From: a virus
Taxonomy: Duplodnaviria > Caudoviricetes
Virus record (IMG/VR): IMGVR_UViG_3300037067_007193
Coordinates: 1 to 64,000 of that record
Reading direction: 5' to 3' (one strand)
DNA: 64,000 nt
Positions within the stretch are counted from its first letter, which is position 1; every line of letters begins with the position of its first letter. A program made the position numbers and the translations under genes. The notes below the pieces were generated by a model. That model was not told the DNA's origin and made no database searches. It saw only the letters and a list, made by a program, of their open reading frames with translations. Shown piece after piece: positions 5,071 to 31,526 of this stretch.

Positions 5071-5301
5071 TTAAATGTGAGTCGCATCAAGAAGATGCTC
5101 TGCTATGCTTTCAAGCTCAGTGATGTAGACTGCGTTCTGGTGCAGCCTCCACGCGCCGTATGCGCTTACAATGGACAGCGCCAGTAGGCCAAGCCCGAAA
5201 TTGAGGTCACGCCAGTACCCGGACTTGAAGCAATCGTGTAGAAACAGGCAAAACATCCCGAATAGAAATGCGCTGATAGACCCGAACAGGTAGGTATGCA
5301 T
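5071..5301 (-). CDS. Small membrane protein
   Basis: MHTYLFGSISAFLFG..., two hydrophobic segments; SD lies within an AGGAGTCGCATCCT hairpin. Confidence 0.65.
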   Translation of the reverse strand: MHTYLFGSISAFLFGMFCLFLHDCFKSGYWRDLNFGLGLLALSIVSAYGAWRLHQNAVYITELESIAEHLLDATHI

Positions 5302-5338
5302 AGGATGCGACTCCTGGGTTTTTGTGAATCGGGTGTTG

Positions 5339-5665
5339 CTAAAGCGTTGGTGTTGTTTCAAGAATTTCATTCGCCATTTGATGAGTCAAAAGGCCACCTA
5401 AAAATCTTTTTGACATTTCGCAATACTGGCCTTCTGGCAATTTTTTCAACATGGACACAAGGGTAGAATCGGGTATCAGGGCGAAATTGCGGTAAAGAAT
5501 TGTTTCGAGATTATCAAGCGCGTTCTTGGCGTCCTGAAAGCTGAAACCGACTTTGAATAAATCGTTGTGTGCGTTCGGATTTTTTAAAAATCCGGACTTT
5601 AATTCTTCCCATCGTTTGTAAAAATGGGATCGGATTTCGGCGGCAACGGCAGCTTCATTAGACAT
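5339..5665 (-). CDS. Hypothetical protein
   Basis: 108-aa ORF in operon context. Confidence 0.7.
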   Translation of the reverse strand: MSNEAAVAAEIRSHFYKRWEELKSGFLKNPNAHNDLFKVGFSFQDAKNALDNLETILYRNFALIPDSTLVSMLKKLPEGQYCEMSKRFLGGLLTHQMANEILETTPTL

Positions 5666-5861
5666 GGGATTTTACCTTTCGGCGTGACGGGCCTTTTTCA
5701 AGGATGATCTCAGTTTCCGAAATTGTAGCTCCGAGTATTGTTATGTCCATGTTGTCCGCCACATGGATAAGCTGGTGATCGCGCCAGATAATCCGACCGC
5801 CCCAACCAAAAGAATGGGCGAGGTCAGTTAAGCGAATACAGAATATGTCGGGTTTGGACAA
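5658..5861 (-). CDS. Hypothetical protein
   Basis: 67-aa ORF, TTG start downstream of GGAG. Confidence 0.55.
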   Translation of the reverse strand: MSKPDIFCIRLTDLAHSFGWGGRIIWRDHQLIHVADNMDITILGATISETEIILEKGPSRRKVKSHV

Positions 5862-5882
5862 GGTGTTTGCGACTCCTAATTA

Positions 5883-5910
5883 AATATATATTATTAAAAC
5901 AAAAAGTCAA
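5883..5910 (-). promoter_or_regulatory. Leftward sigma70-type promoter
   Basis: TTGACT-16-TATATT, followed by the GGAGTCGCA motif. Confidence 0.55.
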
Positions 5911-5982
5911 GAAAACAGGCTGAAAAAATAAGGGGTCAAAACACGTTGCCAGGGCGTGACACCTGCGTAACTGTTTGACCGA

Positions 5983-6062
5983 GGCATAGGGACAGCGGGC
6001 AAATCATGGATTGCGACTCCTGGTACGCCCGTGCTGGTCGCCAGACCAGCGGTCCCTATGCC
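5983..6062 (-). promoter_or_regulatory. Structured intergenic element (three-way junction) carrying a GAGTCGCA loop
   Basis: Perfect 11-bp inverted repeat GGCATAGGGAC; inner GCTGGTC/GACCAGC and CGGGC/GCCCG stems. Confidence 0.55.
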
Positions 6063-6066
6063 GTTT

Positions 6067-6600
6067 TTATTTCGCCATCGCCTTAGCTATATCCTTGAGG
6101 CGTGAGGCAGTAATGTGGTAATACACCTGTGTCGAGTTGATGCTTGTGTGCCTGAGCCATGCCTGACATTCTTCCAGCGAGTACCCGGCCTGACTCATAG
6201 CCATCGCCCGGCTGTGTCTGAGAACGTGCGGGCCGTGATCGGGACAGACCTTGCGCCAGATGTTTTCAATGGCATCGCCGGTCAAGCCTTTGCCTTTGTA
6301 ACCAGGGAAAAGATACTCGTGCTGGTGGGACAACTTGAGTTCCAGGATGCGCCGTCGCAAGTCGCCCTCAAGCGGCATCAGGTAGCGTTCCCGCTCCCCG
6401 CCCTTGCGCCCGGACTTGAGGACGGTCACTACAACACCGTGTTCCGTAACGTCCGAACGCCGTATCAGGCTGACTTCCCCGCGCCTCAGTCCGAGATAGT
6501 AGACAAATTCCAGCAGAAGCGGATTGGCTGACTTGGATATCAACTTGCGGACCTCCCTGTCCTCAAGGTACTTGATGCTGCGTTGACCATAGGTTTGCAT
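6067..6600 (-). CDS. Small tyrosine recombinase (catalytic domain only, 177 aa)
   Basis: LGLRRGEV (R), VLKSG (K), HVLRHS (HxxR), WLRH, TQVYY (Y). Confidence 0.9.
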   Translation of the reverse strand: MQTYGQRSIKYLEDREVRKLISKSANPLLLEFVYYLGLRRGEVSLIRRSDVTEHGVVVTVLKSGRKGGERERYLMPLEGDLRRRILELKLSHQHEYLFPGYKGKGLTGDAIENIWRKVCPDHGPHVLRHSRAMAMSQAGYSLEECQAWLRHTSINSTQVYYHITASRLKDIAKAMAK

Positions 6601-6615
6601 GATGCCCCTCCCCTT

Positions 6616-7001
6616 CTAAAACGGCATGTCTGGATCGGCCCCGGCATGGGGTTTTTCTTCCTGCTGCTGCTTTTCCTTCTGGCCCTTGCCGCCGAAAAGA
6701 ATAACAAGCTCAGAAGCCAGTATTTCCGTGATGTACCGCTTCCCACCGTCAGCTTCCCAATGCCGGGTCTGAAGCGTCCCCTCAAGATACACCTGAGTGC
6801 CTTTTTTGCAATAGTTTGATATTATTTCCGCCAGCTTTTCCCATGCCACTATGCGATTCCATTCGGTAACTTCCTTGTCGCCCCATTGCCGGGAAGTAGC
6901 AACGGTAAAGTTCACTACGGTCTTGCCGTTCTGTGTCGTGTTTTTCTTGGGATCGTCCGATAAAAACCGAGGATGGTTACGTGATTGACGCTACGTGACA
7001 T
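6616..7001 (-). pseudogene. ssb: Single-stranded DNA-binding protein, frameshifted in a T-run at 6962-6966
   Basis: MSRSVNHVTILG shifts frame into LSDDPKKNTTQNGKTVVNFTVAT...VYLEGTLQTRHW...DMPF; one extra T restores a 128-aa SSB. Confidence 0.9.
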
Positions 7002-7141
7002 TGCGTTCTCCCGTTCTGTTTGTGGACCGAGCGGCGGACGGATGCTGCAAATGCGATATTCACAACACCCGCCCGTCTCAGTGCGACTCCTGGGGCAACT
7101 TCGCTTGCTTTTTGATAATAAATTATATAAGTTAAGTAACA

Positions 7142-7417
7142 ATGGAAGGTGTAACGTTTTATGTTGTGTCTACAGCGGGGTCGCAATGTGATACTAACAT
7201 AAGGGCCAACTTCGTGTCAATAAAAAAAAATCCAAAAATCGAACGTTTCCGTATTGAATCCGATTTGTCGCAAATTTTACATACGGTTGCCAATGAGATG
7301 CCCCGCATGACCAAAACGTTGTTGGTTGAAATAGCCCTTGACTATCTTCTGAGACAGCATTCTTTGGAACAGATTGCGCAGATTGTGGGTGACTATTTTA
7401 CGAGAAAGCGCGAATAG
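7142..7417 (+). CDS. Ribbon-helix-helix (CopG/Arc-like) DNA-binding protein; start uncertain
   Basis: RFRIESDLSQILHTVA...MTKTLLVEIALDYLL beta-alpha-alpha pattern; divergent from ssb. Confidence 0.55.
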   Translation: MEGVTFYVVSTAGSQCDTNIRANFVSIKKNPKIERFRIESDLSQILHTVANEMPRMTKTLLVEIALDYLLRQHSLEQIAQIVGDYFTRKRE

Positions 7418-7557
7418 TTACCCGCGTTTGCGATAGATGCCATACAACAACAAACACACCATTGGTTGAAAAAATTCGGGATGCCGGTAAATTATGCCAG
7501 CCAAAACACAACAACAAATGCCCTCACAGATCGCTATTAGTGTTTCATAAAAATCTT

Positions 7558-7758
7558 TCACGCCGACCTCCACACTGTTTTCCTTATGCGATTCCTGCCC
7601 GATGGAGCAACCACAACAAACTGCGTTCCGTGCCTGTATACCGCCGAAGCCACCAAGTCACGGGCCGAGACTTTCAAATCTTCCGGCGGCAGTCTGCACC
7701 TTGCGAATCCTACGGCTTGCAAAGACTCAAGCCGGTGCTGCTGTGAATGGGTTAGCAT
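7558..7758 (-). CDS. Hypothetical protein
   Basis: 66-aa ORF with SD AAGGAG. Confidence 0.6.
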   Translation of the reverse strand: MLTHSQQHRLESLQAVGFARCRLPPEDLKVSARDLVASAVYRHGTQFVVVAPSGRNRIRKTVWRSA

Positions 7759-8046
7759 CTATGACTCCTTTTTATTTCCGTTCCGGCGGTGCTTGATGTC
7801 GAGTTGAGCGATGGCGCGACGCAAGGCTATGGTGCGGCCAACGCGACGGCAAAATGGTTCTTTAAAAGAGCAGCGGCAATGCCCACCACCCCAAATAAAT
7901 TCACCCTTTAACAGCGTACAATTTGTTATCCGAAAGACGCGCTTACGTTCGTCGGGGTATGTTGTAAAATGGTGGTATCTCACTTCTGTTATCCCCGCTT
8001 CTTCCAGCACCTTTTCAACCGGTATGTCCAGCTTGCCCTGGATCAT
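7759..8046 (-). CDS. Hypothetical phage protein
   Basis: Likely start MIQGKLDIPV; C-terminal FCRRVGRTIALRRA motif. Confidence 0.7.
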   Translation of the reverse strand: MIQGKLDIPVEKVLEEAGITEVRYHHFTTYPDERKRVFRITNCTLLKGEFIWGGGHCRCSFKEPFCRRVGRTIALRRAIAQLDIKHRRNGNKKES

Positions 8047-8244
8047 ACTTTCCTCCCGCGACACATTATCCAGATGGTCAAGGTGGCAACACACAGGACT
8101 ATTGCCAAGTCCGCGCCCTGCCGCACCGTGAAGTTATCCAAAACAGAGGACAGGTAGGTCATGAATCAATCTCCCTGCTTAATTCTTGGATTATCCATGA
8201 AATTACAAACAGAAGTAGCGTCCCGAACAAAATGAAAATAATTT

Positions 8245-8439
8245 TCATGGTTCCTCCGGGATTATTTTTAATTCGGGATCGTTACAGAAAATCAGAGAGG
8301 CGTGACCAGCAGCAAAAGAAGGATAGACTATCTCGATTGACCACACCGGGCGACCACATAGGGCAGTCATACCGGTTATCCGGCCAGTCTCGATACCATC
8401 GGAGATAAGCGTACCAATGCGTGCAGTGAGCGGCGGCAT
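8245..8439 (-). CDS. Hypothetical protein
   Basis: 64-aa ORF with SD AAGGAG. Confidence 0.5.
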   Translation of the reverse strand: MPPLTARIGTLISDGIETGRITGMTALCGRPVWSIEIVYPSFAAGHASLIFCNDPELKIIPEEP

Positions 8440-8442
8440 AGG

Positions 8443-9165
8443 TTACTCCTTCTTGCGGTAATCGTGTACTATTGTTCCGCCATCCCATACCTTGTTCACC
8501 GAGCCGCCATCCCATACCCTGTTCACCGAGCCGCCATCCCATACCTCGTTCACCGAGCCGCCATCCCATACCTCGTTCGCCGAGCCGCCATCCCATACCT
8601 TGTTCACCGAGCCGCCATCCCATACCTCGTTCACCGAGCCGCCATCCCATACCTCGTTCACCGAGCCGCCATCCCATACCTTGTTCACCGAGCCGCCATC
8701 CCTGACCTTGTTCACCGAGCCGCCAGCCCTGACCTCGTTCACCGAGCCGCCATCCCATACCTCGTTCACCGAGCCGCCATCCAACACTTCTATTTTCCCG
8801 CCATACAACCTTTCAATTTCAACACCCTTTGCCACTACCCACTTCCCACCTAACAGGATTTTCTTTTTCCCGTTGGTAATGATTGCCGCTTTCGCCCTTG
8901 TGTGTAGTTTGCGCTCCCATTGGGACTTTATCTCATCCGTAAGCCAGTCGGGTTCTTCTTGGTCAATGCGGAGTGCGTATTTGGTAATATCAACCAAGTC
9001 TTTGGTGTCGTCCGTGGTATATTCCACACGGCACCAGTTATTTTTCTCCGCATCGCCGGAATCGTCCAGATCGAGGGCAAGCAAAAGCATTTCGTGGCTG
9101 TCTGTGGCATCGTGGGTAAAAACATCGCCATCACGGAAGGCAATACCGGAAAGGTATCTGCACAT
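8443..9165 (-). CDS. Phage protein with C-terminal 9-aa (GGSVNEVWD) beta-solenoid-like repeats
   Basis: Globular N-terminus plus 11 tandem GGSxNxVxD units. Confidence 0.85.
   Translation of the reverse strand: MCRYLSGIAFRDGDVFTHDATDSHEMLLLALDLDDSGDAEKNNWCRVEYTTDDTKDLVDITKYALRIDQEEPDWLTDEIKSQWERKLHTRAKAAIITNGKKKILLGGKWVVAKGVEIERLYGGKIEVLDGGSVNEVWDGGSVNEVRAGGSVNKVRDGGSVNKVWDGGSVNEVWDGGSVNEVWDGGSVNKVWDGGSANEVWDGGSVNEVWDGGSVNRVWDGGSVNKVWDGGTIVHDYRKKE
8477..8782. repeat. 27-bp tandem repeat, about 11.3 copies (coding)
   Basis: Unit approximately CCGCCATCCCATACCTCGTTCACCGAG, no spacers. Confidence 0.95.
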
Positions 9166-9244
9166 GGTGCGACTCCATGCGAAAGGATAAGTTTTAAAGC
9201 TGAAATTGTGGCACTGACGGGTTTGCGACTCCGTTTCTAAGTTA

Positions 9245-9272
9245 AATATAATATCAAAAAAAGTTTTGTCAA
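9245..9272 (-). promoter_or_regulatory. Leftward promoter of a divergent pair
   Basis: TTGACA-16-TATATT followed by GGAGTCGCA; a rightward TTGACA lies at 9304-9309. Confidence 0.6.
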
Positions 9273-9374
9273 GCGTTTGAACATAAATTTTTGTCCCGTT
9301 TGCTTGACAAACTGAATTTTTTTACGCATATATCTTAGGCATCTCTGCCATGAAACCAGGAGTCGCATCCAGGT

Positions 9375-10187
9375 ATGGTTAAAATCCCCGGCGGATACAT
9401 ACGCCTGCATCGCCAGTGCCTTGACAATGGCTGGCTCAGGAATCCACATCTGTGGACTTTCTGGTGCTATTGCCTGCTCAGGGCATCCCATGCCCCATTT
9501 ACCGCAAACATTGGCCTACAGTGTATAGATTTGGAGCCGGGGCAATTTGTCTGCGGAAGAAAACAGATTGCCAAAGAATTAAACATGACCGAAAGGCAAG
9601 TTCGATACTATTTCTCAACGCTGGAATTGCGCCAAAACTTGGTCATAAAAACGTCCAACAAATTTTCCGTTGTAACCGTTGTCAACTGGCAATCTTATCA
9701 ATTCAACGAAAATGAATTGTCCAACAAAGGGCCAACAAAGGGCCAACAAAGGGCCACATACAATAACATAAGAACAGAAGAACAAATACAAAAAACACTG
9801 TTCACTTATGAGCCAGTGAACGTAGATTTTTTTGAAACGTGGTGGAAAGTCTATCCGAAGAAAGCCGACAAGAAAGCCGCTCAAAAAGCCTGGAATAAAA
9901 TCAAACCCGACAGCACCAAAGCCGACCAGCTTATTCAAGCCGTCAAAAATCAAATCGCATGGAGAGAATTAGCAAGCGGTGAGTTCCGCCCGGCATGGAA
10001 AAACGGGGCCACTTGGCTTAATGGCGAATGTTGGAACAATCCAACCGACTCTGGTACTCCCGTGAATGTGTCCCATTCTGTCCGCTGCGCCAACCCCGAC
10101 AAATATCCGCCGTGCGGGACTGTCTGGAACCTGAATGAACGTTCCGCCTGCCCGCGTTGTGGCTGGAAATACGAGGAAAAGAAATGA
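9375..10187 (+). CDS. Phage replication initiator (lambda O/DnaD-like)
   Basis: GYIRLHRQ...LWTFWCYCLLRA, GQFVCGRKQIAKEL, FETWWKVYPKKADK; directly upstream of dnaB. Confidence 0.85.
   Translation: MVKIPGGYIRLHRQCLDNGWLRNPHLWTFWCYCLLRASHAPFTANIGLQCIDLEPGQFVCGRKQIAKELNMTERQVRYYFSTLELRQNLVIKTSNKFSVVTVVNWQSYQFNENELSNKGPTKGQQRATYNNIRTEEQIQKTLFTYEPVNVDFFETWWKVYPKKADKKAAQKAWNKIKPDSTKADQLIQAVKNQIAWRELASGEFRPAWKNGATWLNGECWNNPTDSGTPVNVSHSVRCANPDKYPPCGTVWNLNERSACPRCGWKYEEKK
9721..9756. repeat. Iterons (CCAACAAAGGG x3), likely replication origin
   Basis: 11-bp tandem repeats inside the initiator gene, as in lambda O. Confidence 0.7.
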
Positions 10188-11482
10188 CACATGAACAGAA
10201 CGAAGCCGCTGTTGTGTCCTGTATGCTTATGAACGCGGATGCCATAACCGAAGCTATTCAGCAATGCAGGCCCGAATATCTGTCAAACGAAAAGCTCCGC
10301 ACTCTGTACAGCGTGATTGTGTCCCTATATGAGCGCGGGATTGAGGTTGATATTCCCGTCCTAACAGACGAACTGAGAAAGAAAAACCGGTTGCAGGACA
10401 TAGGAGCGCCGTTTGTTTTCGAGGTTGCCCGTCAAGTTGCGGCATGGCAGAATATCGGGCATTACTGTACGCGGGTGCGGGAACACTGGCAGTTAAAGCG
10501 CCTGAAAGAAATAAGCGGAGAGATAGAGAACCAGATAGCACAGCCATTGGTTGACGCGGGTGAATTACTCGACAAAGTGGAAACCCAACTTGTTGCTATC
10601 CGGGATAGTAGTTTACAGCCGACAACCGCGCCGGTAAAAGACGGATTGCAGCAATTTGAATCTGAGCTTGAGGAACGCGGAAAGACTGGCAAGCTACCCG
10701 GCATACTGACAGGACTAAGGTCACTTGACCGCACCACTGGCGGCATGAGAAAGAAAAAATTAATCGTTGTCGCTGCCCGTCCGGGCATGGGAAAATCAGC
10801 CCTTGCCCTCACCATCTGTAAGAATCTGGCGGAACAATCCCCGCCTGTATCCAGCCTGATAATCAGCCTGGAGATGTCGCGAGATGAATTGATCGAGCGC
10901 CTCATGTGTCAGGAAACGGGTTACACGGTTTACGATTTCCGTGAGTCTGAGAGGATAGCAAGCATTGACTGGCCGAAAGTCAACATAGCTCTCAACAGAT
11001 TGTACAGTGATGAGATTTACATTGACGATGCACCGACACACACGCTGTTGGAAATACGGGCAATCGCCCGTAAGTGGAAACGTCAGGCCAATATTGGCTT
11101 GTTGGTAATCGACTACATGCAGTTGATCCATACGCGGGGCAGGACGCGGAACGAGGAAGTTGCAGAGATAAGCCGAGACTTGAAAAGGCTGTCAAAGGAG
11201 CTTGATATTCCCGTTATGGCAATCTCTCAGTTGAGCCGTAAGACAGAGGAAAGGGCCGACAAGCGGCCCTGTATGGCAGACCTGCGGGAATCAGGCAACA
11301 TCGAACAGGATGCGGATGAAATATGGTTTGTCTATCGCCCCTGGACAGCCGGGACACAAGAGATTGACGGGCGCTCAACCGAAGGGCTTGCGATTATTAT
11401 CGTCGAGAAAAACCGGGGCGGAGCGACCGGAGATATTGAGACTTATTTTGACGCGCCGCGTTTTGCATTCCGGGACTTATAA
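10184..11482 (+). CDS. dnaB: Replicative DNA helicase
   Basis: AARPGMGKS Walker A, ISLEMS, VIDYMQLI, ADLRESGNIEQDAD, KNRGG. Confidence 0.95.
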   Translation: MTHEQNEAAVVSCMLMNADAITEAIQQCRPEYLSNEKLRTLYSVIVSLYERGIEVDIPVLTDELRKKNRLQDIGAPFVFEVARQVAAWQNIGHYCTRVREHWQLKRLKEISGEIENQIAQPLVDAGELLDKVETQLVAIRDSSLQPTTAPVKDGLQQFESELEERGKTGKLPGILTGLRSLDRTTGGMRKKKLIVVAARPGMGKSALALTICKNLAEQSPPVSSLIISLEMSRDELIERLMCQETGYTVYDFRESERIASIDWPKVNIALNRLYSDEIYIDDAPTHTLLEIRAIARKWKRQANIGLLVIDYMQLIHTRGRTRNEEVAEISRDLKRLSKELDIPVMAISQLSRKTEERADKRPCMADLRESGNIEQDADEIWFVYRPWTAGTQEIDGRSTEGLAIIIVEKNRGGATGDIETYFDAPRFAFRDL

Positions 11483-11485
11483 CAC

Positions 11486-11519
11486 AAAAAAGCCCGGCTT
11501 TTGACCGGGCTTCCCTTTG
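11486..11519. terminator. Bidirectional intrinsic terminator between convergent units
   Basis: AAAAAAGCCCGG-loop-CCGGGCTT. Confidence 0.7.
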
Positions 11520-11537
11520 TCTGGCGTTGCCGTTGAA

Positions 11538-11747
11538 TCATGCCACGTTTACCCATTTCATGCAGGTTTGAATTGCGTGGTCGTAATCGCCGCTCATCGT
11601 CTCGTTTTGAAACTCCTTGATTTCTTCCGGCGGCACTTCTGCTCGGCGCAGGGCTTCGGAAACCCGTCCGATGATAGAAAAAACATTTCCGTCTTCTCTT
11701 GAAAGTTGTACGTCAACATCAGGATACTTGCATCTTTCTGTTTCCAT
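11538..11747 (-). CDS. Conserved small phage/plasmid protein
   Basis: DGNVFSIIGRVSEALRRA...SGDYDHAIQTCMKWV pattern. Confidence 0.75.
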   Translation of the reverse strand: METERCKYPDVDVQLSREDGNVFSIIGRVSEALRRAEVPPEEIKEFQNETMSGDYDHAIQTCMKWVNVA

Positions 11748-11760
11748 TTGCTCCCCCTGT

Positions 11761-11820
11761 GTTTTGTCCGGACTTGAGACCGGGCTTGTGGTTTACAGGG
11801 CTTGCGCCCTGCTCTCGCCT
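11761..11820 (-). ncRNA. Twister-like self-cleaving ribozyme candidate (permuted, P1 closed by GCAA)
   Basis: GGC-GAGAG-[CAGGGC GCAA GCCCUG]-UAA-ACC-AC-AAGC-[CCGG UCUCAAGU CCGG]-ACAAAA; T1 CUC/GAG and T2 AC/GU pairings fit; P2 imperfect. Confidence 0.45.
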
Positions 11821-11883
11821 TGTGTTGGCGGCGGGTCTCTGTTTTTGTTCATGTGCATCCTCGGCATGTAGCCGGGTTAAGGG

Positions 11884-12075
11884 TTAGCCGTTGTATTCTT
11901 CGCCGAAAATTTCCTCACAGTGTGCTATCCAGTCGTTATTCAGTTCTTCAAGGCAGAGTTCCATAACGCCTGGAACGGCTAAAATTGTTGCCACTTCAAG
12001 GCCAGCTATCCAGCCCGTGAATTTGTCATTGTCGTTGACCATTTCGCGGAGTTCTTTTTGCTTGTCTGGCTTCAT
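11884..12075 (-). CDS. Hypothetical protein
   Basis: 63-aa ORF, SD GGAGGG. Confidence 0.65.
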   Translation of the reverse strand: MKPDKQKELREMVNDNDKFTGWIAGLEVATILAVPGVMELCLEELNNDWIAHCEEIFGEEYNG

Positions 12076-12078
12076 CTT

Positions 12079-12291
12079 TCACCCCTCCACGCGGGCAGAG
12101 CCGCAGACGTTACCGTTGATGTCGCGCAAGGTGTCACAGAAAAGCGGTACGCCCTTTAAAACATTTTCAAAATCTACATTTTCTAAACTGCGGTATTCTT
12201 TCGCTGATCTTTCAAGTATCCGCGCAACCTCGGTTCCGGCGTAAGGATCAAACGCCTCGCCCTTCATGTCAATCTCAATCACCAGCTTCAT
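12079..12291 (-). CDS. Hypothetical phage protein
   Basis: MKLVIEIDMKGEAF...LRDINGNVCG; SD AGGAGG. Confidence 0.75.
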   Translation of the reverse strand: MKLVIEIDMKGEAFDPYAGTEVARILERSAKEYRSLENVDFENVLKGVPLFCDTLRDINGNVCGSARVEG

Positions 12292-12322
12292 TTGATGCCT
12301 CCTGAGAGTTAGGTTTGGTTTA

Positions 12323-12371
12323 TCCATCGACGGGCTTGCGCCCGTTTCGGCCTATGCCTCGTCAGGATGGA
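12323..12371 (-). ncRNA. Type I hammerhead ribozyme
   Basis: UCCAUC-CUGACGA-GGC AUAG GCC-GAAA-CGGGC GCAA GCCCG-UC^GAUGGA: full core, three stems, GUC cleavage triplet. Confidence 0.9.
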
Positions 12372-12372
12372 G

Positions 12373-12792
12373 TTAGTTTCCTTCTGAAAAGTCCGGGGCA
12401 AGGATAACATATCCGCCCCAATCCTTATAAATCCCGGTCAGTTTTTCACTCGGTCCCGTATGCAGCTTGAGCGCATACCCGCGAGGGTCACGGTTGATTT
12501 TTATATCCCCGGCGCGTTGCTTGCCGATAATCGCCGCCACCTTGTCGCGCAAGGCATCCGTCCAGGTGTCGAGTTTATCACCATCAATCCGACCGTCTGT
12601 ACCTTCAAGATCAGGATAAGGGGCCGGATTGGCGTTGCAGTATGCCAGCATAACACGCTCGGCTTTTGCTTCCAGCCGCCGCAGCTTGCGGCACAGGTCA
12701 AACGGGTCTGTTTCCGGCGGTAAGCCGAAAACGCGCTTTAAATTCTCGCCGTGCGCCTCGATTGCCTTGTACATCCTTTCTTTCTTGTTCAT
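12373..12792 (-). CDS. Hypothetical phage protein
   Basis: MNKKERMYKAIEAHG...INRDPRGYALKL...DWGGYVILAPDF. Confidence 0.75.
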   Translation of the reverse strand: MNKKERMYKAIEAHGENLKRVFGLPPETDPFDLCRKLRRLEAKAERVMLAYCNANPAPYPDLEGTDGRIDGDKLDTWTDALRDKVAAIIGKQRAGDIKINRDPRGYALKLHTGPSEKLTGIYKDWGGYVILAPDFSEGN

Positions 12793-12800
12793 GGTTTCCC

Positions 12801-12905
12801 TCACGCGAAAAGATACGCCAATTCGAGCAAAAGCCCGAACAGGACAATGAGAAAAACTATAAAGTGGACAGTCTCAGAAATAGTAAAGCTTGGTCTGTGC
12901 TGCAT
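12801..12905 (-). CDS. Small membrane peptide (34 aa)
   Basis: MQHRPSFTISETVHFIVFLIVLFGLLLELAYLFA; hand translated. Confidence 0.45.
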   Translation of the reverse strand: MQHRPSFTISETVHFIVFLIVLFGLLLELAYLFA

Positions 12906-12949
12906 TTGAAACCCTCGTGACAGGGTTAGGAGGTTGCGACTCGTGTATC

Positions 12950-12978
12950 ATTATAATAATAACAACAAAACTTGTCAA
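12950..12978 (-). promoter_or_regulatory. Consensus sigma70 promoter
   Basis: TTGACA-17-TATAAT, with GAGTCGCA at the transcript start. Confidence 0.8.
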
Positions 12979-13127
12979 GAGTTTGGGAGAGATTTTTTTA
13001 CAAGGCGGTCAATTATCATCCCGATTGACTCCCCTGTCCGCTCCCGCTCCAGCTCCAGGCGCTTAACCGTGTCAGGCAAAACGCTTGTTTGAACCATCCT
13101 AACTTTGTTGCTTTTTGGTCTGGCCAT
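12975..13127 (-). CDS. Small RHH/CopG-like DNA-binding protein (50 aa)
   Basis: MARPKSNKVRMVQTSVLPDTVKRLELERERTGESIGMIIDRLV; below ORF-track cutoff. Confidence 0.6.
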   Translation of the reverse strand: MARPKSNKVRMVQTSVLPDTVKRLELERERTGESIGMIIDRLVKKSLPNS

Positions 13128-13141
13128 TCAATCCCCCTGAG

Positions 13142-13324
13142 TTACCAGCCGCAGATAAAAGATACTTCACGGAAAGTTAAATCCGGGTTAGTTTCCCGCA
13201 AACCGGCATCCATGTTGTTAATTTCGTCATAGGCGTCAGACTTGTTTTCCGCTGCCAGCTTGACAACTTCCAGGATCAGGCCGGTTTTTACCTCTTGCTT
13301 GACTGCAAAAAATTGTCTGGTCAT
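13142..13324 (-). CDS. Hypothetical protein
   Basis: 60-aa ORF with SD. Confidence 0.6.
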   Translation of the reverse strand: MTRQFFAVKQEVKTGLILEVVKLAAENKSDAYDEINNMDAGLRETNPDLTFREVSFICGW

Positions 13325-13342
13325 CTTTTCCCCCTGAAAAGG

Positions 13343-13669
13343 TTAGGACTGAAAAACAGCCGCGCAAGCGCCATACATTTCGCTATATGTCAACGGGTCA
13401 AAGCCAAGATATTTTTCTGCGGTGCTTGTTAGCGCGTGCATGTACCTTACTTGCCCGGCATAGTTATACGCCGAAACAACAAAGGCCTCGGTCTGCTTAT
13501 TAGGGCTTTTGATAAAAGCAAAAAGCTCGTGCTGTAAATTAAATAGTCGTATTCCTCCCCCTGTGCGCTCGTAAAAGCCGTTTGCAGTCCTTCCGTTGAT
13601 CGGATGAAAAAGCGATTCGGTAAATTCCTTATCGTTCTGGCAATATGCCCGGTCGTTGAAAATAAGCAT
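13343..13669 (-). CDS. Hypothetical protein
   Basis: 108-aa ORF downstream of its own promoter. Confidence 0.7.
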   Translation of the reverse strand: MLIFNDRAYCQNDKEFTESLFHPINGRTANGFYERTGGGIRLFNLQHELFAFIKSPNKQTEAFVVSAYNYAGQVRYMHALTSTAEKYLGFDPLTYSEMYGACAAVFQS

Positions 13670-13721
13670 TTCCGCTCCGTGACAAGGTTTGAAAAGGATT
13701 TGAATTGTTTGCTACACTTAT

Positions 13722-13750
13722 ATCATAATCATAATACAAGGGTTTGTCAA
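13722..13750 (-). promoter_or_regulatory. sigma70 promoter
   Basis: TTGACA-17-TATGAT. Confidence 0.7.
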
Positions 13751-13888
13751 GGGCTTTTTCAAGAAATTTTCAAGCGCAAGGGCCAAGGGAAGGCTTTCTA
13801 TGCGGTTAAAGCGCCAACTATCACACAAGATTATAATAATAACAAAACAAGTTAAGATTTATAAAATGCATTTTTATTGCCCTTTTAC

Positions 13889-13917
13889 TTGACTTTTTTA
13901 ATCGCATTTTTTATATT
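13889..13917 (+). promoter_or_regulatory. sigma70 promoter toward terS
   Basis: TTGACT-17-TATATT; variant CAGGAGCCGCAATCCTG hairpin about 40 nt downstream. Confidence 0.7.
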
Positions 13918-13994
13918 AAAGTGGATACAGAATAATAATAAAAACAAAAGTTACGCCAGGAGCCGCAATCCTGTTTTAAAAAACGCACCACGCC

Positions 13995-14350
13995 CAAGCC
14001 AATATAAAGCATTTAAAGCTTTATATATTATATATACCCTAAGATATATAAGGTTTTTAAAAGCCTTTAAGTCTTTAAAGCCTTTAAAAGCCTTTATATA
14101 TATACCTACTCTTAGAATATTATAAGCCTTTGTTCTTTGTCTTTAATAAAGAAAGACTTTATTATGATTAATAAACTTACAAGAAATACCATTAATAAAG
14201 ACAATGGTCTTTTAAATAATAAAGAGGATATTAAAGAAAAGAATAAGAATATTAATACTCTTAATAAAGATAATAATATTAATATTACTAAAGAGAATAA
14301 GAATATTAATGTTGTTAAAGAGAATAATAAAGTTATTGGTACGCCTTTAA
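13995..14350. repeat. Very AT-rich low-complexity tract with TAAAG/AAAGCCTTTA repeats (candidate pac or terminus region)
   Basis: AAAGCCTTTA at 14060, 14077 and 14087; about 11 TAAAG copies; overlaps the 5' part of terS. Confidence 0.6.
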
Positions 14351-18334: not shown

Positions 18335-18715
18335 ATGTGGCAGAAGCTTGAAGAGCCGGTGGTGTTTTTCAGGAAGCCGAATGGCGGTCACAGAACCGAA
18401 GCGATGATGAGTTTCGGGGATGAAGCGGGTAACTTCTGTCATCTGGCGCTGGAAGATGGGAAGGTTTCGTTGTGGCGTGGTGCGGAATACCGATACGAGC
18501 GGATGGTGGAGTGGCCGAGAGAGATACTGACAGCATTTGTTGATTGCCGACTTGATACGGTCATGTATGACGCAAGGCGGGAATTGGGCGGCATGGAAAT
18601 AGAATTGAAGCACCTACAGGATGGAAAGAAAGAAAGGACTGCGGGAAACAAGCCTGCACAGCCAGACAAGTATGAGTCGCACAAGCCCAAGAAGGTCAAG
18701 AATGCCAAGCACTGA
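18335..18715 (+). CDS. Hypothetical protein
   Basis: 126-aa ORF, SD GGGGAG. Confidence 0.7.
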   Translation: MWQKLEEPVVFFRKPNGGHRTEAMMSFGDEAGNFCHLALEDGKVSLWRGAEYRYERMVEWPREILTAFVDCRLDTVMYDARRELGGMEIELKHLQDGKKERTAGNKPAQPDKYESHKPKKVKNAKH

Positions 18716-22453: not shown

Positions 22454-23659
22454 TTGACAGACAAGTATGCAGACACGAACGCACGTTTGGCAGACCTGAA
22501 ACAGATGTACAGTTTGTCTTCCCGCAAGATGGCTACCATGTGCGGGTCGGATGAGCGCAGCATCAGGCGGTATCTGAAAGGTTCCCGCACCTGTCCGGCA
22601 GAAGTAATCTCCGCGCTGGAAAACAATCTCCGGCCGTCCGCGATCAAGGCTTCCCCGGACTCAGAACTGAAGCAGAAAGTGATGTCGCTTGCGCAGGTCG
22701 GCGCGGTGTCGGTCGGCGAGATTTCCCGCCAGCTTGACCGAAGCAAGGAAACAGTTGTCCGGCTGATAGACGAACTCCACCAGGAAGGATACGAGATAGA
22801 GATAGACGAAGGCACGCGGCAGGTTGAATTGCGCCGGGAAACTAAGCGCGATTTCTCGTGGATAAATGTCAGCGACTTGTTCAAGAACCAACTCAAGTTC
22901 CTGATGGTTTCGGACTCGCATTTCGGAAGTAAGTACCAGCAGCCCACCCTACTCCATACCGCGTATCATATCGCCGCAGAAGAAGGCTGTGCGTTCGGGA
23001 TGCACGGTGGCGATTTGTCAGACGGACACCCCTCGATGCACAAAGGCATGATTTACGAACAGTGGTACAACGCCAACACCGATGATCTGGTTGACTACAT
23101 CACAGATGTCTACCCGCAAGCCCCGTTCAAGACGTACATCCTGGACGCCGGAACGCACGACACGATCTTTGTCAAGATGTTCGGCTACAACCTCGTGCGG
23201 AATGTCTGCCAACGCAGACACGATCTTGTCCAGCGCAAGGGCGACGAAGCGGTATTCGGGCATGACGGGCAGATACATTGCCGGTTGAGACACCCGACTG
23301 GCGGGGTGGCCTATGCCCGTAGTTACCACATCCAGAAGTACAACACGGCACTGATGGAACATGCCATGCACCTGATAGATGCTGGCGGCGCGGGAGAAGA
23401 ATACAACCCGCGTGCCGTGTACCCGCATGTTGTGGCGGTCGGGCATTATCACCTTTCCATGTACATGCCGATGGCCGGGAGTCATGTGTTCGGACTCCCC
23501 TGTTTCCAGAGCCAGACGCCGTATCTCCGGGACAAGGGACTGTTCCCGCAGGTGGGTTTCTGGATAGTGACCCTGCACTTTGACTGCGATGGCCGGGTAA
23601 GCAAGGTGGAGCCGCAGGCTTACCAGTGGACGCATCTGGTCAGGGAGAACGACTACTGA
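22454..23659 (+). CDS. HTH(x2)-calcineurin-like metallophosphoesterase
   Basis: N-terminal HTH segments; SDSHFG, GGDLSDG, AGTHD and GHYH motifs; TTG start after GGAGG (track start 22340). Confidence 0.85.
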   Translation: MTDKYADTNARLADLKQMYSLSSRKMATMCGSDERSIRRYLKGSRTCPAEVISALENNLRPSAIKASPDSELKQKVMSLAQVGAVSVGEISRQLDRSKETVVRLIDELHQEGYEIEIDEGTRQVELRRETKRDFSWINVSDLFKNQLKFLMVSDSHFGSKYQQPTLLHTAYHIAAEEGCAFGMHGGDLSDGHPSMHKGMIYEQWYNANTDDLVDYITDVYPQAPFKTYILDAGTHDTIFVKMFGYNLVRNVCQRRHDLVQRKGDEAVFGHDGQIHCRLRHPTGGVAYARSYHIQKYNTALMEHAMHLIDAGGAGEEYNPRAVYPHVVAVGHYHLSMYMPMAGSHVFGLPCFQSQTPYLRDKGLFPQVGFWIVTLHFDCDGRVSKVEPQAYQWTHLVRENDY

Positions 23660-30474: not shown

Positions 30475-30725
30475 TTCTGGTGGAAGGCATCAGCAAGGAA
30501 GATTTTGAGGCGTGGAAGTCGGCTATCCTGACGCAGCATATCTTAGCGTCAGTCCGAAAAGCCCGCGATGAGAAAGGCGATTACATGCGGCGCGGTCAAA
30601 CTCTGGACGCAAACAGCGCAGAACGCACGCAAGCCTTGACAGCAGAGGCTTTTGGATATTGTGCCGCCCTGAACGATGTCCTAACGATGGAAGCCGATGA
30701 AAAAATAAATCCCGTTATCTCTTGA
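30471..30725 (+). CDS. Conserved small protein downstream of portal
   Basis: 84 aa, ATGA coupling. Confidence 0.7.
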   Translation: MILVEGISKEDFEAWKSAILTQHILASVRKARDEKGDYMRRGQTLDANSAERTQALTAEAFGYCAALNDVLTMEADEKINPVIS

Positions 30726-30750
30726 CAAAAAGGTCTTTTTATATTATATT
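30722..30750 (+). promoter_or_regulatory. sigma70 promoter
   Basis: TTGACA-17-TATATT. Confidence 0.75.
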
Positions 30751-30764
30751 GGAGATGAGAGAAT

Positions 30765-30950
30765 ATGGAACGTTCTCAACTTTTCCGTTTGATACAGGAA
30801 AAGATTGATGCGGAGATAGGAAACAAGCTGAACGGGCGTGTGGTTTTTACCGTAAGTCTTGGAGATGGTGGTATCCGGTTGTGCGAGTGCCAGACGACCG
30901 AGATTCTTCAGATACAGAAAAAGCCCGAACTGAAGGTGATAGCAAAGTAA
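30765..30950 (+). CDS. Small hypothetical protein
   Basis: 61 aa downstream of the 30722 promoter. Confidence 0.65.
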   Translation: MERSQLFRLIQEKIDAEIGNKLNGRVVFTVSLGDGGIRLCECQTTEILQIQKKPELKVIAK

Positions 30951-30953
30951 ATT

Positions 30954-31128
30954 ACGCGGCGGGCTTTGTCCCGCACCCCCCCCGTTGCGACTCTTTAGCG
31001 TTGTGGGAGCCGCCCGCCGCGTGAACATATTGTAGTAAAGATTCGGCACTAAGAATCTCGCCCCAAAGGGCGACCATTCGATAGCCCGGATGGAAGAGGA
31101 TAAAACCTCTCCTGTCCGGGCCTTTTTT
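30954..31128 (+). ncRNA. Structured 3'-UTR RNA / candidate sRNA ending in an intrinsic terminator
   Basis: 11-bp ACGCGGCGGGC stem, UCCCGCA/UGUGGGA, loop CGACUCUU, two further hairpins, GCCCGGA/UCCGGGC plus U-tract; G-U pairs favour the + strand. Confidence 0.55.
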
Positions 31129-31157
31129 ATTTTACCCCTATCCAGAAGGCGACAGCC

Positions 31158-31526
31158 ATGCAGAAAACCCCTCTACTCACCCGCGAAACAATGAAAACCC
31201 GCACTGAGGACTGCCCTCCCGGAAGACCGGCAGGACACCGACTCCTTGTGCGAGTTGAAACCAAAGAAGAAAAAGTCGGAAGCATTATTATTCCCGAACA
31301 ACACGGAGAGGCCTGTGAACGGGCCAAGGTGTTGTGCGTGGGAGAAAACGCTTTTATGGGATACGGCGACAGCCATCCGTGGTGCGAAGCTGGCGACATA
31401 ATTCATTTCGTGCGCTATGCTGGTAAGGAAGTCGTGTTTTTAGGCGACACCAGCAAATACCGGGTGATTAATGACGAGGATGTCTATTGGGTTTGCGACA
31501 AGGAAGCGGGGGTGACTCGTGGCTGA
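31158..31526 (+). CDS. groES: GroES-like co-chaperonin
   Basis: PAGHRLLV, GSIIIP, KVLCVG, GDIIHFVRYAG, VINDEDV. Confidence 0.85.
   Translation: MQKTPLLTRETMKTRTEDCPPGRPAGHRLLVRVETKEEKVGSIIIPEQHGEACERAKVLCVGENAFMGYGDSHPWCEAGDIIHFVRYAGKEVVFLGDTSKYRVINDEDVYWVCDKEAGVTRG

Follow-up and report, generated by a model that had tools for sequence, protein, structure and literature searches.

A short oriented word at early promoters and ribosome-binding sites of an uncultured phage, with a possible role as RNA-level operator

Oriented words at the start regions of early genes have been known since 2011, without a mechanism, as the start-associated sequences (SAS) of the Cluster K mycobacteriophages. 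Described in Pope et al. 2011 (PMC3203893), these 13-bp sequences (GGGATAGGAGCCC) are present in 11 to 19 copies, almost all of them 3 to 7 bp before a start codon, and their function is still open (PMC12699233). The stoperators of Cluster A phages are also 13-mers, with more than 20 copies genome-wide, and a helix-turn-helix (HTH) repressor, gp71 of phage L5, binds them on double-stranded DNA as a monomer (PMC9283540, PMC6550527). We describe here a word, GAGTCGCA, that is repeated in the early region of a 75,588-bp phage genome from IMG/VR (record IMGVR_UViG_3300037067_007193), the first 64 kb of which are called the window in what follows. The word looks like a docking site for one regulator, in the manner of the mycobacteriophage SAS and stoperators. 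In its extended form, (CCAG)GAGUCGCA, it could be an operator acting at the RNA level on early leaders and ribosome-binding sites (RBSs), where one trans-acting factor would read it; we regard this as possible, if still short of probable.

The word and its distribution

The window holds 12 copies of GAGTCGCA, against 1.76 +/- 1.39 expected from dinucleotide shuffles of the same window, and 12 was reached in none of 100 shuffles. The two ends of the contig overlap, so that the map is circular or terminally redundant, and genome-wide there are 13 exact copies, ten of which lie in the early region (75132 to 12942 on the circular map). Two one-mismatch variants, GGGGTCGCA at 7177+ and GGAGCCGCA at 13959+, have the extended context in common with them and are grouped with the early copies; one-mismatch words are not enriched overall (43 against 48.8 expected). 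This makes about 12 sites, spanning about 75.1 to 14 kb of the circular map. The remaining exact copies, outside the early region, are at 18674+, 30986- and 45603-, and their number is not clearly higher than the 1.4 to 1.5 expected by chance (scaled from 1.76 per 64 kb).

A preliminary description of this DNA had listed exact copies at 5079+, 5306-, 5868-, 6012-, 7082-, 9168-, 9224-, 9360+, 12935- and 18674+, together with a variant, GAGCCGCA, at 13960+. We recovered all of these at the same positions and on the same strands, and the figure of about 0.25 chance copies in the 8.9-kb span is also right (2 x 8893 / 65536 = 0.27). That list is extended by the exact copies at 30986- and 45603- in the window and 75132- past it, and by the variant GGGGTCGCA at 7177+, in the leader of a gene for a ribbon-helix-helix (RHH)-like protein. 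Since the contig ends overlap, 75132- belongs to the same leftward early operon, where it is an RBS copy. The Rfam scan placed no family on any copy of the word, and a literature search for the word itself gave primers only. A tRNA-like reading of GAGUCGCACCA was rejected, as ARAGORN detects no tRNA.

Alignment of the copies gives CCAGGAGTCGCA as consensus, with a C-rich stretch after it, and GAGTCGCA is all but invariant. Of the extended word, GAGUCGCA is the invariant part, and the CCAG before it is conserved in only 7 to 10 of the 12 early copies. GGAG is present in eight of the ten exact early copies and in the variant at 13959+, and the variant at 7177+ reads GGGG. All eight copies of GGAGTCGCA are outside coding sequence, in non-coding DNA or at gene starts (P ~2e-7), in a genome of which about 86% is coding and about 14% non-coding. 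Orientation follows local transcription in 12 out of 12 early copies, in agreement with the earlier claim that the word is on the sense strand; copy 5079+ is sense to the promoter P5032(+) and antisense to gene 5071-5301. Six of these co-oriented copies do not serve as a Shine-Dalgarno (SD) sequence, and their orientation is therefore not forced by RBS use.

The word had been said to occur just after transcription starts or on the SD and start codon, and the measured spacings agree. It begins 7 nt after the -10 of P12978 and of P5910, 13 nt after that of P9272, 18 nt for P5032(+), 24 nt for the weaker P7142 and, in the case of the variant copy, 42 nt for P13889(+). In the RBS copies, where GGAG is the SD, the gap between word and start codon is 1 nt (75132), 2 nt (9168), 4 nt (5306), 7 nt (9360), 6 nt (5868, with a TTG start) and 4 nt (6012, with an open reading frame, ORF, of 23 codons), so that five or six copies provide a correctly spaced SD and start codon. 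Among the ten strongest sigma70-like promoters between 1 and 16 kb (sites matching the sigma70 consensus at 10 or more of 12 positions), five have a sense copy at most 60 nt past the -10 (binomial P ~7e-7). In the analysis of early promoter windows, all copies were downstream of a -10 and none was within or upstream of the core promoter; the word was the sole one common to these windows besides the extended -35, and no palindromic operator was common to them. At five copies (5079, 7082, 9224, 12935 and 13959), no start codon follows at the distance of an RBS, from which we conclude that the word is more than an RBS.

The sites differ in how they are used. Copy CGAGTCGCAAC (12935-12942, minus strand) is at about +1 of the transcript from P12978 (12950-12978, minus strand; TTGACA-17-TATAAT, a 12/12 match), and is not an RBS, the first gene having its own SD 20 nt further on; the -35 of this promoter is overlapped by the stop codon of the gene for a 50-amino acid (aa) RHH-like protein. 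Copy GGAGTCGCAAAC (9224-9232, minus strand), at about +7 of the transcript from P9272 (9245-9272, minus strand; TTGACA-16-TATATT, 11/12), has no start codon after it, and copy GGAGTCGCA (9168-9176, minus strand) is the SD of a 240-aa gene (ATG 9165). Facing the other way, copy CCAGGAGTCGCATCC (9359-9367, plus strand) is in the leader and RBS of a DnaD-like gene (ATG 9375), downstream of two rightward promoters, P9223 and a TTGACA at 9304. P9223(+) shares its -10 region with P9272, and its -35 (TTGCGA) is the reverse complement of copy 9224. Such opposite-strand pairs with one AT-rich -10 occur twice, as P9272(-)/P9223(+) and P5910(-)/P5867(+), and in both the -35 of each promoter is within the initial transcribed region of the other.

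Further along, copy CCAGGAGTCGCA (7082-7090, minus strand) is in the SSB leader, about 75 nt before ATG 7001 and downstream of P7142 (9/12), and the variant GGGGTCGCA (7177-7185, plus strand) is sense to the RHH-like gene 7142-7417(+). Copy CCAGGAGTCGCAATCC (6012-6020, minus strand), in a structured gap following a truncated integrase-like gene, is followed by an ATG that opens 23 codons only. Copy AGGAGTCGCAAAC (5868-5876, minus strand), past P5910, provides the SD for an ORF of 67 aa that starts with TTG at 5861. Copy CCCAGGAGTCGCATCC (5306-5314, minus strand), upstream of which there is no promoter, provides that of the gene (ATG 5301) for a 76-aa two-transmembrane protein. Copy TGAGTCGCATC (5079-5086, plus strand) makes a 10-bp inverted repeat with copy 5306; its promoter, the strong P5032(+) (TTGACA-17-TAGAAT, 11/12), fires antisense into gene 5071-5301. 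Beyond P5032(+) is a terminator-like hairpin (5573-5597, plus strand), the 76-aa protein encoded at 5071-5301 has two hydrophobic segments, and the layout recalls that of antisense-controlled small membrane proteins. The variant past P13889(+) is CCAGGAGCCGCAATCC (13959-13967, plus strand).

Readings of the word

Each copy had been thought to fold into a short hairpin. The stems quoted for these hairpins exist in the sequence, but they are short and barely exceed the controls. On average, the longest stem around the word has 3.7 bp, and that around random positions of the genome 3.6 bp. In minimum-energy folds, 7 of the 12 copies have UCGC in an apical loop with a closing stem of 3 bp or more, compared with 1.3 when flanks are shuffled and 3.5 +/- 1.1 when 3' flanks are swapped between copies; for such 3-bp stems, P ranges from 0.00 to 0.14 in the flank-swap control, depending on window size. 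Stems are mostly of 3 bp, and none of the three non-early copies has the apical-loop fold. The best hairpin is that of copy 9168, with a 7-bp stem (CGCAUGG/CCAUGUG), and the variant at 13959 has a 5-bp stem (CAGGA/UCCUG). Hairpins thus amount to a weak tendency, which we take as real at copies 9168, 9360, 7082 and 13959, rather than to a defining feature of the word.

Four traits point to a reader of the sense-strand transcript: strict co-orientation, the exclusive placement in transcribed leaders, the overlap with working SDs and a weak tendency to form hairpins. We infer from them that the word is read as RNA and that binding represses. It would then be a cis-acting tag within the first 1 to 45 nt of the RNAs from most early sigma70-type promoters, the same word doubling as SD region for several early genes, and one trans-acting factor would bind it on RNA and shut the early units off together. 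At RBS copies, this factor would mask the SD and the start codon, and at copies in 5' leaders it would act on the transcript by blocking it, destabilising it or ending it prematurely, the purpose being prophage immunity or the switch from early to late expression. Of the interpretation given in the preliminary description, the part that stands is that of a regulatory word shared by early genes and read on the sense strand, as judged from co-orientation, from placement in leaders and RBSs only and from the fact that early promoter regions have no other word in common except the -35. The phage does carry a self-cleaving RNA element in early mRNA, since a Type-P5 twister ribozyme (11768-11819, minus strand; Rfam RF02684, 49 bits for a gathering score of 37.6) is found in the same early operons, between two small early genes. 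A hammerhead-like row at 12324-12390 (minus strand) has 27.5 bits (E = 0.3), below its gathering score.

If the word is read as RNA, the factor may be a protein of the phage that belongs to no known family, or else the apical loop in a structured RNA at 30951-31135, the former being somewhat more likely. Two protein candidates adjoin copies of the word. The 50-aa RHH-like protein (12975-13127, minus strand), a candidate DNA-binding regulator, is a lead from ESM Atlas only, with no Pfam or PDB match. The second is a 91-aa ORFan encoded at 7142-7417 (plus strand), the only plus-strand gene in the leftward early block; the C-terminal two-thirds are RHH-like according to ESM Atlas only, and the AF2 model is unusable (pLDDT 44).

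The RNA candidate (30951-31135, plus strand) is downstream of a consensus sigma70 promoter, P30722, and of a 61-aa ORF. It has four predicted hairpins, the last of which is a terminator, and the 188-nt RNA folds far better than its own shuffles (z = -7.4). As copy 30986 of the word is on the minus strand, the plus-strand RNA reads UUGCGACUCUU (30985-30995) in a 26-nt apical loop, which is unpaired in the centroid structure and, in silico, can pair over 10 to 11 nt with AGGAGUCGCAA. Rfam gave no family at 30700-31260, even at E up to 5, bar a spurious snoRNA row. The suggestion that the word is an antisense target has one concrete candidate, the loop at 30985-30995, but the copy there may be a chance occurrence.

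Searches for relatives brought no comparative support for the operator. IMG/VR was scanned for three patterns (the motif followed by ATG, two copies 35 to 65 nt apart, and a divergent pair), and only chance matches and coding tandem repeats were found. Relatives sought through the DnaD-like protein, portal, DnaB, RecT, and the 240-aa and 108-aa proteins were all at most 65% identical, and in the contigs of these distant relatives GAGTCGCA occurs 0 times in 161 kb and 6 times in 441 kb, at or below expectation. The word is absent at the homologues of the 240-aa gene (45 to 53% identity, including a family of phages of about 70 kb), at 108-aa homologues and in RecT-bearing prophages. Contig L266 is a 100% identical copy of the window, one landfill metagenome run shares 43% of the k-mers of the region and another 18%, and no RNA dataset was among the sequencing runs listed as carrying the phage sequence.

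Several observations weigh against an operator read as RNA. Homologous genes in other contigs (45 to 65% identity) are without the word, and there are no protein variants at 90% identity or more, the 90% clusters being singletons. No excess of hairpins is seen for stems of 4 bp or more in the flank-swap control. Two copies begin exactly 7 nt past a -10, the classic position of a DNA operator, and both RHH-like proteins encoded next to copies resemble a type that typically binds DNA. None of about 69 early proteins, scanned against Pfam and PHROGs, matches a CsrA, Hfq, RegA, RegB, N or NusG-type family. A purely translational operator of the RegA/CsrA kind, one of the earlier suggestions, misfits the five copies that serve no start codon; a boxB-like signal misfits the copy number and the weak, variable stems. 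Regarding the RNA loop, late non-coding DNA would have about 0.1 antisense-oriented copies by chance alone. The predicted energies of its duplexes do not clearly distinguish motif sites (-16 to -24 kcal/mol) from other RBSs (a median of -14.6 and a best value of -25.6), since any G-rich SD can pair with the C8 run of the loop.

Three other scenarios and one variant of the RNA-level operator were considered. The strongest rival, in itself somewhat unlikely, is a polar network of DNA operators comparable to stoperators, in which a repressor would bind an asymmetric 8- to 12-bp duplex site past early promoters and at some junctions, and block initiation or elongation in one orientation only, silencing the early genes in the lysogen. 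The layout fits the published stoperators, which are found at promoters and in short intergenic spaces with an orientation tied to transcription (PMC9283540). The earlier statement that the element is RNA rather than DNA is not established: it rested on the marginal hairpins, and stoperator-type DNA sites are orientation-dependent too (PMC9283540). Copies are present at +1 of P12978 and P5910, and as early promoters have no common palindromic operator, the word is the only candidate operator. Moreover, this uncultured phage of 75.6 kb looks temperate, from its integrase, HTH_17 protein and RecT/RecE-like genes, yet no recognisable cI-type repressor was found in the Pfam and PHROGs scans of early proteins, and one of the two adjoining RHH-like candidates has a variant copy in its own leader. 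However, RHH dimers normally require at least two adjacent subsites, whereas copies here are single, and the same scans of early proteins, mostly ORFans, found no gp71-like HTH repressor. The sites number about 12 and occupy the early region only, against more than 20 genome-wide in Cluster A phages. The GGAG that acts as a working SD at five or six genes would be superfluous in a DNA site, and the weak hairpin tendency also speaks against duplex recognition.

Returning to recognition as RNA, the phage RNA 30951-31135 might itself be the global repressor, with no protein involved, its loop UUGCGACUCUU pairing with the word GAGUCGCA. This is, in our view, improbable. The loop would have about 12 leaders and RBSs to pair with, in seven or more early units and possibly through loop-loop kissing, and the repressor RNA would be carried by a moron-like unit with its own sigma70 promoter. 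If true, this would be immunity or early shut-off by RNA only, far wider than with P1 c4 or P4 CI, and antisense-RNA immunity would extend from a single operon to a whole early regulon.

Alternatively, the word may be a passive cassette, that is, a favoured leader and RBS copied between early genes by recombination, and hence a junction sequence with no dedicated factor. We consider this quite improbable. It would explain that two RBS-type copies, 5306 and 75132, share as many as 16 nt (AAACCCAGGAGTCGCA), but promoter-proximal and RBS copies have no common flanks, and five copies are at no start codon. The five invariant bases past GGAG are not needed for an SD: UCGCA cannot lengthen pairing with the textbook (canonical) 3' end of 16S rRNA, which may not be that of the host, and other genes of the phage use GGAGGAA or AAGGAG. 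In addition, a relative with a 65%-identical DnaB has no word there, and its upstream gene has a different RBS. Finally, a function of the opposite strand, with TTGCGA as the -35 of opposite promoters that share an AT-rich -10 with the early ones, can be set aside as very improbable, since TTGCGA-18-TATAAT at 9223(+) (10/12) and TTGCGA-16-TATTAT at 5867(+) (9/12) do fall on copies 9224 and 5868 but at most 2 to 3 of the 12 copies are covered, the A needed for TTGCGA follows only 8 of 15 copies (the 13 exact genome copies plus 7177+ and 13959+), and the RBS copies and the conserved GAG are left unexplained. These last two scenarios account for only part of the pattern.

The choice between DNA and RNA is testable with few constructs, as the list of partners is short (two RHH-like proteins and one complementary RNA loop). 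The phage offers a compact example of an oriented start-region word, 8 to 12 nt long and with about 12 sites, the canonical sigma70 promoters and SDs of which are expected to work in E. coli reporters.

The genome around the word

The leftward early genes start at about 9.3 kb, continue past position 1 and, on the circular map, extend to about 64 kb. This block includes RecT, RecE/YqaJ-like, SSB and the truncated integrase-like gene, and the full integrase, the HTH_17 protein and RusA are encoded further along. A rightward pair, DnaD-like and DnaB, begins at 9375; a second leftward block occupies 13.7 to 11.5 kb, and late genes run rightward from about 14 kb. Among GenBank phages, the early region has no DNA match, and none has a portal protein more than about 40% identical to the one encoded here.

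Some features of these genes deserve mention. The SSB gene is frameshifted (6916-7003, minus strand): its first 13 codons (ATG 7001) are in a frame other than that of the 99-aa PF00436 ORF (6616-6915), and the two frames join at a run of five T near 6965, by sequencing error or by genuine frameshifting. Within the 240-aa early gene (8443-9165, minus strand), eleven tandem 27-bp repeats at 8499-8795 encode nonapeptide repeats, and similar 27-bp repeats are present in its homologues in other phage contigs (L251, L255). The first gene of the P13750 operon (13343-13669, minus strand) encodes the 108-aa protein, of a family of about 183 representative sequences. Its model is confident (pLDDT 95), but no fold match was found in PDB (Foldseek E above 0.2; VIA-align Z at most 3.6), nor a Pfam family, and it therefore gives no clue to the partner of the word.

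A second word linked to starts, YTGTCACRGRG, is present at 12917(-), 13679(-), 15266(-) and 22437(+). Three leftward early units have it directly ahead of the start codon of their first gene, and the gene at 22454 has it directly ahead of its own; at two of these sites the word folds into a small hairpin in which the SD is included. The AT-rich stretch 13980-14130, in which AAGCCTTTA and TATATATA units recur, separates the divergent promoters from a small-terminase-like gene and could be an origin, a pac site or a region of late control.

As to composition, CTAG is absent from the 75.6-kb genome, where a Markov model predicts about 86 occurrences, and GATC (162 against 357 expected), CCWGG (83 against 146) and AGCT (112 against 196) are depleted genome-wide, which suggests strong restriction avoidance or a host-specific bias. 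The idea of a GcrA/CcrM system (GANTC) was rejected, GANTC being undepleted (258 against about 295 expected).

Comparison with known systems

In antisense-RNA immunity (P1/P7 c4 RNA, P4 CI RNA, P22 sar), a stable structured RNA exposes a short stretch complementary to repeated leader or RBS targets, and each of these RNAs serves one operon with two targets. The candidate RNA at 30951-31135 resembles P1 c4 and P4 CI in being, in silico, structured, terminated and provided with an exposed loop complementary to its targets, but differs from them in that a single loop would have to serve about 12 targets spread over at least seven units, and in matching no Rfam family. Phage T4 acts on early RBSs through RegB, whose targets are GGAG in early SDs, and through the RegA operators. 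The coordinated post-transcriptional shut-off of early genes through an RBS signal, as proposed here, would be of the same kind; the word is set apart by the absence of a match to either family among the scanned proteins, by a conserved part that extends 5 nt past GGAG and by the copies that are not RBSs. Lambda-type nut/boxB sites are stable hairpins with a conserved loop, about one to each early operon, and come with an N-like protein; the word differs in its stems mostly of 3 bp, in having two copies in one leader as well as internal copies, and in that the scans of early proteins gave no N-like family. In CsrA/RsmA sites, GGA is the conserved part and is in a hairpin loop within an A(N)GGA context, whereas here the invariant part is GAGUCGCA and GGA is in the stem of the predicted hairpins.

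The word shares more with the Cluster K SAS. Both are short, asymmetric and repeated, and combine an SD core, AGGAG, with conserved bases that do not pair with 16S rRNA; both are found at non-structural genes only, one-way with the genes and ahead of unrelated ones, and neither has an assigned partner, RNA or protein. On the other hand, the core is here of 8 to 12 nt and unrelated in sequence to GGGATAGGAGCCC, only five or six of the 12 copies are at RBS distance from a start codon, and half of them lie where no start codon follows, at the 5' ends of transcripts or within leaders. Promoter and SD signals next to the word are canonical, of the sigma70/AGGAG type, and SAS are conserved across related phages, whereas no relatives with the word were found. 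With the Cluster A stoperators, the word has in common asymmetric sites at promoters and in short intergenic gaps, an orientation that follows transcription, and the suggestion of one factor for many units. It departs from them in that its copies, about 12, are limited to the early region, that no such repressor was recognised and that the word overlaps working SDs. It therefore lacks defining features of both SAS and stoperators and is a member of neither, and these two are its closest counterparts in layout.

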